A program made the translations under genes and the position numbers. A model generated the notes under the pieces. It saw only the letters and a list, made by a program, of their open reading frames with translations. It had not been told where the DNA came from and ran no database searches. Positions 10,807 to 44,883 of a stretch of DNA of 64,000 nt are shown here, in pieces. This DNA is from Eledone cirrhosa (taxonomy: Eukaryota), in the NCBI GenBank assembly GCA_964016885.1, contig OZ024740.1, forward strand, positions 442,432,001 through 442,496,000, in the 5' to 3' direction. Each line of letters starts with the position of its first letter. The stretch's first letter is position 1.

Positions 10807-12100
10807 AAACGGAGAAAATGAAACGAAATTTTATTTCTCACTCTTATTACGGCTGTTACTTAAATATAAGTATGTATACGTACATACATATATGTATACA
10901 GACGTATAGTAGTATGTATATATATATACATACATGCACACATATATATATGTACGTATGGATTCATCGAACATTTATTATAATGCTCGGTATGTTTGTC
11001 AACAAACATCCCGTATTAAGCCGTACAGTGTGTAGCAACCATCATTGCTCATGTGTTCAACACTGACAAAGGAACGCTGTACTAGTTTCAAGCTTATTAG
11101 CTATCGTCAGCAACGTTTACCTTCCTGCCAGATGATTGAACGTCTGAAAGTATATACTTTCCTTACGCATATTAACGGCTGAGCAGCCTAATTTGCATAT
11201 CGAGTGAGTTAATCGGCCGGGTGCACCGAAAACGATAAACGGAAAAAATGAAACGAAATTTCATTTCTCACTCTTAGTCCGGCTGTTACTTAAATATAAG
11301 TATGTATACGTACATACATATATGTTTACAGACGTATAGTAGTATGTATATATATATACATACATGCACACATATATATATGTACGTATGGATTCACCGA
11401 ACATTTATTATAATGCTCGGTGTGTTTGTAAACAAACATCCCGAATTAAGCCGTACGGTGTCTAGCAACCATCGTTGCTCATTTGTTCAACACTGACAAA
11501 GGAGCGCTGTACTAGTTTCAAGCTTATTAGCTATCGTCAACAACGTTTACCTTCCTGCCAGATGATTGAACGTCTGAAAGTATATACTTTCCTTATGCAT
11601 ATTAACGGTTGAGCAGCCTAATTTGCATATCGAGTGAGTTAATCCGCCGGGGTACCGAAAACGATAAACGGAAAAAATTAAACGAAATTACATTTCTCAC
11701 TCTTAGTACGGCTGTTACTTAAATATAAGTATGTATACGTACATACTTATATTTAAGTAACGCTGTACTAGTTTCAAGCTTATTAGCTATCGTCAGCAAC
11801 GTTTACCTTCCTGCCAGATGATTTAACGTCTGAAAGTATATCCTTTGTCAGTGTTGAACAAATGAGCAACGATGGTTGCTAGACACTGTACGACTTAATT
11901 CGGGATGTTTGTTTACAAACACACCGAGCATTATAATAAATTTCGGTGAATCCATACGTACATATATATATGTGTGCATGTATGTATATATATATACATA
12001 CTACTATATGTCTGTATACATATATGAATGTACGTATACATATATGAATGTACGTATACATATATGAATGTACGTATACATATATGAATGTACGTATAGA
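10807..12100 (-). mobile_element. Tandem array of a ~430-bp HHR-containing unit (retrozyme-like): 2 units plus a rearranged/inverted 5' end
   Basis: 430-bp period; HHR at 11074, 11504 (TTGACGA variant) and 11760; 3' end abuts (TA)n. Confidence 0.8.
11074..11116 (-). ncRNA. Minimal type I hammerhead ribozyme of the 430-bp unit
   Basis: acgttg-CTGACGA-t-agct-aata-agct-t-GAAA-CTAG-TA-cagcgt. Confidence 0.85.
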
Positions 12101-12154
12101 TCGGTGGGGCATATATATATATATATATATATATATATATATATATATATATAT

Positions 12155-12911
12155 ACATTATGGATACGTGTCTCATTCAAGAATACTGATATTTTCAATA
12201 TAGTGCCTGGTTTTTATACATATTACTACTTCTACATTAAAACATAGGGTTTTTATGCCTCGCCTATGTCTGGTTACTTTTCATTTTTCTCTCTATATAA
12301 CAGCTGGTTTCTCTCCTAACCACATATATCTCCCTTACATTAATACTAGAGCTAAATAAATAAATAAATAAATAAATGTATCATTGATACGTTTACTCAA
12401 CGGATGTCCAACTACATATTTTTCTATATATATATCTATCTCTATCTATTTCCTCTCTCTATATATATCTCTCTCTCTGTTTCTTTACATGAAGTTCTTC
12501 TCTTTATCTATCTTTTATCTATCTTTCCATCTCTCTATTTTGTTCCATGCATTTCTTCTTTTTCTTCTTTTTCTTCGTTTTCTGTCTTTCTTTCCTTTTT
12601 TCTCTCTTTCTTTCTCTCTGTTTACAATTTTTTCACTGCCAATTCAACTTTTCAAATACAAGTCGATGTTGTACGGTATGTCAAATCTATTTATATATAA
12701 AACTGTTTATATTGTATTTTGTCTGAGGAGGGCATAGCATATTGTTAATATGATATCCCTGAAATATATATAATGAAATAAATATGGTTTTATAAATATA
12801 GTTTCCATTTATTTAATATCGTAAATATACTCCAAATACTTGTCGAGTGCTTTTATATCAGTTATTAATATTTACTAGTTGTAACCCAACACTTTAAATA
12901 TAACTTTCCAT
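12155..12911 (+). repeat. 5' pseudo-LTR
   Basis: Direct repeat of 15972-16726 (acattatggatacg...aactttccat). Confidence 0.92.
12715..12780 (+). ncRNA. Type I hammerhead ribozyme in the 5' pLTR
   Basis: tattttgt-CTGAGGA-ggg...ccct-GAAA-TATATA-TA-atgaaata. Confidence 0.8.
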
Positions 12912-12958
12912 GTATCTTGCTCCAATACTGTTGAGCGCTTTATATTATAACTGAAAAA

Positions 12959-42830: not shown

Positions 42831-43297
42831 TATATATATATATATTTTTTTTTCTCAACCTGTTAGTTCTATCGTTACTTTGGTATATTATTGTGTGTTA
42901 GATTTTGCCTCCCCCAATGTTCAATTTGTCGAGCTATTTAAACGTATGTTATTACTCTAAGGACCTACCTTATCGAGTGCTTGGCTAACTCATCATTTCG
43001 TATAAGTCGGCCGAATTTGCTTGCAAACCGCCAGAGATTCGATTTTACTAAATTTCCAATTATATATATATATATATATATATATATATATATATATATA
43101 TAGTTATGTAATAAACAACATAAGGCAATTATTTCATTTACCAGTCGTTTTTTAAAAGCAAAAAAGATTTCTTTCAATCATCAGAATGAAAAAATCCTGG
43201 CGTATTTATTGACGTTGGATATATACATATATATATATATATATACATATATATATATATATACATATACATATATATATATATGTTTATATATCTC

Positions 43298-43548
43298 TAT
43301 CTAAGGCGGTTAAAATTCCCGAGATCCATGGACGAGTTCTATCCAGCGGTCTCTGTCCCTCATTATCGCTGTCATGTCCTGTGTCTACAACAGGCCAGTG
43401 TCTGTCCTTAGGGCATCAACATACGTTAACCTTGGTCTTCCTCTTCTAGTGTGTCCATGTAGGGGCTCCCAAAGGAGCACTGAGTACAATGTCAACTCTG
43501 GATGTCGGTGAGCATATCCAGCTAACCTCAGTCTCCTCTGTGTCACTT
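43298..43548 (-). mobile_element. RTE LINE 3' fragment, same family as 34947-35318
   Basis: [21 protein letters not shown]...[16 protein letters not shown]. Confidence 0.85.
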
Positions 43549-43714
43549 TATATATGTATATATATATGTTTATATATATATATGTATATGTATATATACA
43601 TATACATATATAAACATATATATATATATAAACATATATATATATATAAACATATATATATATATATGCATATATATATATATGCATATATATATATATA
43701 TATATATATATATA

Positions 43715-44883
43715 TACGGAAAAAATGAAATGAAATTTCATTTCTCACTCTTAGTACGGCTGTTACTTAAATATATGTATGTATACGTACATACATATAT
43801 GTATACAGACGTACAGTAGTATGTATATATATATACATACATGCACACACATATATATATGTACGTATGGATTCACCGAACATTTATTATAATGCTCGGT
43901 GTGTTTGTAAACAAACATCCCGAATTAAGCCGTACAGTGTCTAGCAACCATCGTTGCTCATTTGTTCAACACTGAGAAAGGAACGCTGTACTAGTTTCAA
44001 GCTTATTAGCTATCGTCAGCAACGTATACCTTCCTGCCAGATGATTGAAAATCTGAAAGTATATACTTTCCTTATGCGTATTAACGGCTGAGCAACCCAA
44101 TTTGCATATCGAGTGAGTTAATCGGCCGGGATACCGAAAACGAAAAACGGAAAAAATGAAATGAAATTTCATTTCTCACTCTTAGTATGGCTGTTACTTA
44201 AATATAAGTATGTATACGTACATACATATATGTATACAGACGTACAATAGTATGTATATATATATATACATACATGCACACACATATATATGTGCGTATG
44301 GATTCACCGAACATTTATTATAATGCACGGTGTGTTTGCAAACAAACATCCCGAATTAAGCCGTACAGTGTCTAGCAACCATCGTTGCTCATTTGTTCAA
44401 CACTGACAAAGGAACGCTGTACTAGTTTGAAGCTTATTAGCTATCGTCAGCAACGTATACCTTCCTGCCAGATGATTGAACGTCTGAAAGTATATACTTT
44501 CCTTATGCATACATGCACACACATATATATGTGCGTATGCATTCACCGAACATTTATTATAATGCTCGGTGTGTTTGTAAACAAACATCCCGAATTTAGC
44601 CGTACAGTGTCTAGCAACCATCGTTGGTCATTTGTTCAACACTGACAAAGGAACGCTGTACTAGTTTCAAGCTTATTAGCTATCGTTAGTAACGTATACC
44701 TTCCTGCCAGATGATTGAACGTCTGAAAGTATACACTTTCCTCATGCATATTAACGGCTGAGCAACCCGATTTGTTTATCGAGTGAGTTAATCGGCCGGG
44801 GTACCGAAAACGATAAACGGATAAAAATGAAATGAAATTTCATTTCTCACTCTTAGTACGGCTGTTACTTAAATATAAGTATG
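43715..44883 (-). mobile_element. 430-bp retrozyme-like array, left part (about 2.7 units, one internally deleted)
   Basis: HHR at 43983 (intact), 44414 (GAAA>CAAA) and 44653 (CTAACGA). Confidence 0.82.

Follow-up and report, generated by a model that had tools for sequence, protein, structure and literature searches.

Mobilization of animal retrozymes by Penelope-like elements (PLEs) was proposed in 2020, in a report that presents PLEs as a strong candidate for the circular RNAs (PMC7229834). A preprint by Li, Clavereau and Pollet describes retrozymes, mostly those of vertebrates, as dependent on PLE machinery on the basis of co-occurrence and of homology to the pseudo-long terminal repeats (pseudo-LTRs) of PLEs (bioRxiv 10.64898/2026.07.22.740005). 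An optional tail at the insertion end is described as a mark of PLEs that is unseen in priming by long interspersed nuclear elements (LINEs) (PMC8557442; PMC3846280), and in vitro this tail is the stretch between two internal start sites of the reverse transcriptase (RT), with both DNA strands being cut and extended (PMC11167929). The Naiads, one group of PLEs, are described as having an N-terminal endonuclease and no hammerheads (Craig 2021; PMC8557442). Here, we analyzed a 64,000-nucleotide stretch of the Eledone cirrhosa genome (assembly GCA_964016885.1, contig OZ024740.1, referred to as C1:442432001-442496000; hereafter the window) that contains insertions of a 430-bp repeat. The repeat fits the definition of a non-coding type I hammerhead non-LTR retrozyme, read on the minus strand. 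Comparison of its insertion ends across the 3.0-Gb assembly makes it likely that the retrozyme is copied in trans into (TA)n tracts by a PLE protein carrying RT and GIY-YIG endonuclease, which would prime from both tract ends, probably on a monomer circle. The original prediction for this locus was that a Naiad RT/GIY-YIG protein mobilizes the repeat in trans; the end rule, the tail and the (TA)n target support mobilization by a PLE, whereas the assignment to the Naiad clade did not stand.

The retrozyme unit and its two fixed 3' ends

Each tandem unit of the repeat carries a type I hammerhead motif, of which the window holds 15 copies, several with changes in the core. The unit is short, dispersed and non-coding, without an LTR, a primer-binding site or an open reading frame (ORF). 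The hammerhead predicted at 11073 to 11117 (minus strand) comprises a 7-bp stem I, a CUGACGA core at 11110, a stem II of 4 to 5 bp, GAAA and a palindromic CUAG stem III, with a predicted UA cut after 11080. A palindromic stem III is described as the mark of hammerheads that act as dimers in tandem repeats (PMC4209133). Pairing holds in 89% of cells over 10 distinct rows from the wider family, and 12 cells show two-sided changes, a number reached in 0 of 500 shuffles, and slid controls pair in only 28 to 48%; kinship among the rows inflates this test. A tight pattern for the hammerhead core of the wider family matched 39,854 times genome-wide (control, 0), and unit length is 430 to 470 nt across the retrozyme families, with a 430-bp unit here and a 468-bp unit in sister family C. 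An Rfam scan of the window returned, among the best 150 of 324 rows, sub-threshold microRNA look-alikes driven by microsatellites and no hammerhead model. Contigs from four runs of unknown kind (three studies) also cover the unit; these are blind to strand, ends and circles and were not used as evidence.

Exact patterns of (TA)4 joined to a retrozyme end were counted genome-wide, with the reversed patterns as the control. Two 3' ends separated by 57 nt were found against (TA)n, a long end with 3,946 exact junctions and a short end with 3,635, and both controls gave 0. The internal form of the long-end pattern occurs 4,760 times. End phases were measured in the first 40 distinct arrays, in list order, chosen through an internal junction irrespective of their ends. 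The first 30 loci and the subfamily B loci had been found with queries that began at the long end and were therefore kept out of these counts. Among 70 outward 3' ends, 34 lay at phase 1 to 6 (33 abutting TA), 27 at phase 51 to 61 (24 abutting TA) and 9 elsewhere (2 abutting TA). The two sites together thus account for 61 of the 70 ends, 57 of them abutting TA, in comparison with 10.1% of random flank positions (1614 of 16030). The 18 outward 5' ends were scattered, and 4 of them abutted TA. Local duplicates within locus L043 remain in these counts, and two loci entered as single-arm, L049 and L070, turned out to be inverted under looser thresholds. In the window, (TA)n makes up about 9% of the sequence. 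A fixed 3' phase with (TA)n adjacency across the genome had been set beforehand as the test of the original prediction, and the long-end junctions and the end phases bear it out.

The four insertions named in that prediction do start at one point after (TA)n, at phases, relative to the natural unit at 11237 to 11666, of 1 (10807), 1 (20432), ~5 (39830) and 3 (43716), that is, within 5 nt. The further claim that the other end varies is correct for the scattered 5' ends but not for insertions 1 to 3, whose far end is an inverted arm at or near the second fixed site (phase ~55 to 60) against (TA)n; having this inverted form with one long and one short end, they do not have random far ends. Insertion 1 (10807 to 12097, minus strand) has a 2.2-unit direct arm from the long end (10807 to 11752), followed by 92 bp of rearranged sequence; its inverted arm, from 11841, reaches the short-end region, which contains a tandem expansion of a 20-bp unit. 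The 57-nt "tail" between its long and short 3' ends lies at 10807 to 10863 (minus strand) and includes a predicted hairpin that immediately precedes the long end; both ends are putative RT start sites. Insertion 2 (20432 to 21678, minus strand) has the long end on its left, the short end on its right and (TA)n flanks on both sides. As had been cautioned, these two insertions are duplicates: their alignment of 1224 bases contains 2 differences, and they have a common inversion junction, with no flanks in common, and by this alignment insertion 2 is a recent local DNA-level duplicate of insertion 1. The duplicated insertion is itself older, its two units differing at 13 of ~270 non-simple positions. 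The window therefore records three independent insertion events. Insertion 3 (39830 to 40108, minus strand), of subfamily B and 84% identical to the reference unit, comprises a 5'-truncated long-end arm and a short inverted arm, the latter meeting (TA)n at the short end. Insertion 4 has its long end at 43716 and extends past ~44.9 kb to 55972. Its left part (43716 to 44883, minus strand) is separated from its right part (52542 to 55972, minus strand; ~8 further units, with a 5' truncation at 55972 and no TA tract there) by a nested gypsy-type LTR element (44884 to 52541, plus strand), which lies outside the retrozyme system and has LTRs that are 98.3% alike and a 4-bp TATG target duplication. 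A 93-bp tandem repeat occurs within the gypsy-type element (50637 to 51375).

We considered whether the repeat might instead be an ordinary satellite, or a LINE-driven short interspersed nuclear element (SINE), placed by (TA)n recombination or poly(A)-type priming, with ends that are fixed through one founder. Whole insertions do duplicate locally between TA tracts, as insertions 1 and 2 and locus L043 illustrate. However, inversion points vary by locus while the ends stay fixed, the long and short ends swap sides, the 5' ends scatter, there is no poly(A) tail, and the arms follow the same one-long-one-short rule as those of PLEs (below). We regard such an origin as highly improbable.

Several other hammerhead families were observed, in which the palindromic stem is CCGCGG, CGCG, TATATA or TGCGCA (L124:150-800, L107, L044, L052 and L103). 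Family D has a 457-nt repeat period, with no ORF seen, and its geometry, which resembles that of the Hydra-type PLEs described below, suggests a possible retrozyme derived from Hydra elements. At L123:1883-2000, a retrozyme 5' end directly abuts another hammerhead, one with a TGCA stem, which is followed by LINE sequence; a template switch is a possible cause.

Pairing of long and short ends in retrozymes and autonomous PLEs

The retrozyme displays the features of a PLE-mobilized element: two 3' ends with a tail between them, a 5'-truncated inverted arm and a tail at one end only, together with a (TA)n target that is common to the retrozyme and three autonomous PLE families of this genome. The two ends are also paired in a near-strict manner. 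Among inward-facing neighbors within 6 kb, identified from coordinates only (the first 95 long and 100 short ends listed on C1), 27 of 27 pairs were long plus short (p 7e-9). Complete inverted insertions had one long and one short end in 20 of 21 cases in the end-unbiased fetched loci, in 14 of 15 cases in subfamily B and in 16 of 17 cases in sister family C. The same rule was seen in autonomous PLEs of the genome. All complete inverted copies of Hydra-type family 1 (14/14, two of which represent one duplicated event; 20 copies examined) and of Hydra-type family 2 (10/10; 20 copies examined) were long plus short in (TA)n, as were those of a Neptune/Nematis-type family (4/4 in 12 regions). A non-coding retrozyme therefore shows the PLE footprint, with the same end rule and tail, and a PLE protein very likely moved it. 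In most of the tabulated ends, the element has a short TA-like match to the tract, which suggests that a primer may pair over 2 to 5 nt at the start sites. Folding of the tails of five elements revealed no structure in common.

We propose that tandem transcripts would self-cleave as hammerhead dimers and that the cleaved monomers would be ligated to circles of ~430 nt. The PLE endonuclease would cut both strands of (TA)n, and each DNA 3' end would pair over 2 to 5 nt with an AU-rich spot at one start site, such that one tract end would prime at the long-end site and the other at the short-end site. Each RT would then travel round the template for a variable length, and the two cDNAs would be joined head to head, or a single arm would survive. 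A more specific version, which we put forward tentatively as somewhat short of an even bet, is that one RNA circle is copied twice at once by a PLE dimer whose RT sites are set asymmetrically at the two fixed start sites. Entire inverted arrays of several kilobases would then form in a single event, through twin rolling-circle reverse transcription, and the circle, unlike its host PLE in sequence, would be recognized by its structure and spacing.

Two complete cross-family fusions were observed. At 35838 to 37294 in the window, a Neptune/Nematis-type copy that ends at its long end is joined head to head, without intervening TA, to an 81-bp Hydra-type pseudo-LTR piece that ends at its own short end, and in locus L286 a retrozyme short end is combined with a family D long end. 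Because both fusions keep one long and one short end, they hint, with an n of only 2, that the start site is set by the DNA end rather than by the RNA.

Template and candidate partner elements

None of 75 arm 5' ends lay within 5 nt of the hammerhead cut, which excludes a cut linear monomer as the template and leaves a circle or an uncut multimer. Of 5 long insertions typed in family C, whose arms reach 12.5 kb, 4 (L203, L204, L205 and L209) have a private variant that recurs in all units of the two arms; in family A, the two arms of locus L062 together hold 8 identical units, with a best match elsewhere of 99.2%. Private variants that are fixed across both arms point to a single-unit bottleneck, for which a monomer circle would be the best explanation, and the template is thus probably a monomeric RNA circle. 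The same mechanism could alternatively copy a linear transcript of an array already present, without prior cutting. In vitro, hammerhead mutants left insertion unchanged and unprocessed RNA was the main substrate (PMC11167929). In addition, minimal dimeric hammerheads cleave poorly in vitro, and within older arrays the units diverge about as much as they do between loci. Yet a linear template would still need a single-unit bottleneck for the private variants of the four family C insertions, and a 12.5-kb arm would require an even longer source transcript; we consider it somewhat unlikely. Family C as a whole (L201-L220, e.g., C3:113967600-113984400) is young, with copies 99% alike and inverted arrays of up to 16.7 kb. 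The alternating units of locus L061 were examined as a possible product of a dimer circle, which was rejected; the changes are confined to units 1, 2 and 4, which suggests later DNA-level expansion.

The ORF at 12959 to 15172, which had been taken for a Naiad and for the partner of the repeat, belongs to Hydra-clade PLE family 1 (12156 to 16724, plus strand). This element has pseudo-LTRs at 12158 to 12908 and 15975 to 16723, each holding a hammerhead (12723 and 16538), a long end at 16724 and an 88-nt tail, and the family is young, with many intact copies in the genome. In the 737-aa protein, the RT (YRDD at aa 352) precedes the GIY-YIG endonuclease motifs (aa 614 to 633). The order is thus the reverse of that in Naiads, and the protein has DKT (aa 118) rather than DKA and lacks the CCHH finger of Naiads. 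An RWK-type motif (RWR at aa 37), DKT, a CxCX5C linker (aa 596), C-terminal CxxC (aa 694) and CxH (aa 721), the absence of CCHH, the hammerheads and the (TA)n target all match the Hydra clade, and the protein agrees by eye with the Hydra supplement alignment, including Hydra-1_Obim (Craig 2021). On these motifs it is a Hydra-clade PLE protein. Among named sequences, the closest to the PLE protein come from Argonauta hians (35 to 41% identity). A true Naiad could also be the partner, given the (TA)n targeting, the inverted insertions with tails and the record of Naiads for two Octopus species. However, no PLE with an N-terminal endonuclease was found in the window or among divergent endonuclease hits in 1.56 Mb of fetched loci, a search with a non-Naiad query and limited sensitivity, and Naiads are without hammerheads and have tails of 30 to 40 bp. 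A Naiad partner is accordingly quite improbable.

The Neptune/Nematis-type element of the window (35838 to 37213, minus strand) is 5'-truncated and encodes a C-terminal GIY-YIG endonuclease with a CX4CxxC linker and CCHH, the combination (CX2-5CxxC with CCHH) of Neptune or Nematis. Its tails are 41 and 55 nt, and it is the best geometric match to the retrozyme. The family is young and abundant in the genome, with intact 1210-aa ORFs elsewhere (e.g., L295) and a hammerhead-like motif ~213 to 224 nt before the short end. The distance from hammerhead cut to short end is 216 nt in the retrozyme, 213 to 224 and 163 nt in two Neptune/Nematis-type families and 44 to 112 nt at five Hydra-type ends. 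The tail is 57 nt in the retrozyme, 41/55 and 56 nt in the two Neptune/Nematis-type families and 88 to 112 nt at the five Hydra-type ends. The stem III insert is 4 nt in both the retrozyme and the Neptune/Nematis type and 6 nt in most Hydra ends. In family 1, the two ends lie 49 and 137 nt past the cut, in comparison with 216 and 273 nt in the retrozyme. The geometry of the Neptune/Nematis type therefore fits the retrozyme better than that of the family encoding ORF 12959-15172, although the argument is a soft one.

On the basis of these distances, we give slightly less than even chances that the partner is a Neptune/Nematis-type PLE. A Hydra-clade partner, whether the 12959-15172 protein or another family, is a serious possibility that we rate a little lower. 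Hammerheads and a (TA)n target are features of Hydra elements, of which young intact copies are abundant, and Hydra family F3 was present in 23 of 115 family A loci versus 4 of 68 control loci. Set against this are the Hydra tails of 88 to 112 nt, start sites 44 to 112 nt past the cut and the lack of homology to the retrozyme; within 600 bp, moreover, the excess of F3 was not significant (4/78 versus 2/146, p 0.19). The 12959-15172 family itself is an improbable candidate, its cut-to-end geometry being different and its pseudo-LTR having no homology to the retrozyme.

Several observations weigh against the proposal of PLE-driven copying of a circle or against the choice of partner. The 40-locus sample was drawn from the first 54 Mb of one contig, and a few insertions have two long ends (L060, L018, L124 and L208). 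The 72-nt tail of sister family C shows that tail length varies, which makes the geometric case for the partner a soft one. Among sampled families, the retrozyme has no homology to any of 9 PLE-type ends beyond simple repeats (best z 2.7), so the PLE pseudo-LTR homology of the origin model of Li et al. was not found there, whereas the Xenopus retrozymes in that preprint share such homology. No PLE with a CTAG-type hammerhead in its pseudo-LTR was seen in 20 further loci. Both direct head-to-head fusions among single-arm 5' flanks (L025 and L286) join the retrozyme to Hydra-type sequence, which favors a Hydra partner, but the Neptune-Hydra fusion in the window implies that such fusions cross clades. 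Transcripts of homogeneous source arrays could also yield uniform haplotypes, and some arrays were reshaped at the DNA level after insertion (L061, and partial periodicity in the longest family C arm). Finally, circles were demonstrated by experiment in PMC7229834, whereas here both cleavage and circles are predictions from genomic sequence.

Other PLE copies in the window belong to further Hydra-type families. Family 2 (17101 to 20200, minus strand) is 5'-truncated, with its short end at 17101, a 112-nt tail and intact 774-aa copies elsewhere (e.g., L154). Family 4 is represented by the 81-bp pseudo-LTR piece at 37214 to 37294 (plus strand), which ends at its own short end head to head with the Neptune/Nematis-type copy, and by a remnant at 40694 to 42866 (minus strand) with its short end at 40694, inverted endonuclease fragments at 42242 to 42866 and a tail of ~98 nt. 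An assignment of the ends at 37295 and 40694 to the Neptune/Nematis type was dropped, since both belong to family 4. The four PLE termini cited in the original prediction are thus all real, but they belong to three different families and are of mixed type (16725 long; 17101, 37295 and 40694 short), and the pyrimidine-rich tails by which they had been likened to the repeat are not a shared motif. A Pfam scan found nothing in six PLE proteins or fragments among 10 sequences scanned. An inverted mini-insertion at 28361 to 28868, of a PLE family ~76% like family 1, has two hammerheads, one short end and one long end. Hydra-type tails share a short TYGAG-type word (window 12909-12945, 16638-16724 and 5165-5275; L154:6872-6985), possibly a protein-binding signal. 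The pseudo-LTR of Hydra family F3 holds only a degenerate hammerhead core (L310, L311, L313, L033 and L043), and in 3 of 8 loci a retrozyme of subfamily E lies no more than ~1.3 kb from F3. A 421-bp inverted repeat (98%; window 8100-10143 and 6068-7972) stands beside a truncated Hydra-type family 3 copy with its long end at 5165. Two LINE-type RT ORFs (Pfam RVT_1; 1450 to 3354 and 29504 to 34700), unrelated to the retrozyme finding, and a 33-bp satellite of over 137 copies (59475 to 64000) were also observed.

Comparison with described systems

The link between PLEs and retrozymes is already in print, and the evidence from termini is the part that we did not find elsewhere. In the literature searched, with subscription papers outside its reach, there was no analysis of retrozyme termini and no cephalopod retrozyme; the supplements of the preprint may bear on termini. 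The spread of retrozymes has so far been argued from co-occurrence and motif sharing, and the insertion ends described here provide a direct genomic footprint in thousands of copies. They predict exactly where on the RNA priming should begin and which DNA end should be used at each site. The genome also encodes young and intact PLE proteins from two or more clades, and with the published in vitro assay both the partner and the circle can be put to a direct test. The rule of one long and one short end further limits the ways in which PLEs themselves could form inverted copies, by priming from both target ends or by self-priming on antisense RNA. For annotation, ~40,000 hammerheads of this family would otherwise pass as satellite or unknown repeat.

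The repeat resembles the animal non-LTR retrozymes described in PMC7229834 in its low-GC, non-coding units of a few hundred bases, its one type I hammerhead per unit and its dispersed short-to-long arrays. It differs from the retrozymes of that description in the fixed ends, tail, inverted arms and (TA)n targeting mapped here, and its unit of 430 to 470 nt is near the upper size limit. Our conclusion agrees with that of Li et al. on the dependence of retrozymes on PLEs. Where that preprint explains arrays by local amplification, however, those of Eledone appear to arrive ready-made with PLE termini. The head-to-head inverted copies, one-end tail and AT-rich targets are as described for PLE insertion units (PMC3846280; PMC8557442; PMC11167929), and two internal start sites downstream of the hammerhead are likewise found there (PMC11167929). 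Unlike those published units, the retrozyme has a tail of 57 nt rather than 30 to 40, a near-strict long-plus-short rule as counted here and no ORF; its start sites match the target over 2 to 5 TA-like nucleotides, in contrast to the anole element, which has no such match (PMC11167929). Likeness to the Hydra clade as described by Craig (2021) holds for the neighboring autonomous ORF at 12959 to 15172 and not for the repeat, in a genome in which several young Hydra families coexist.

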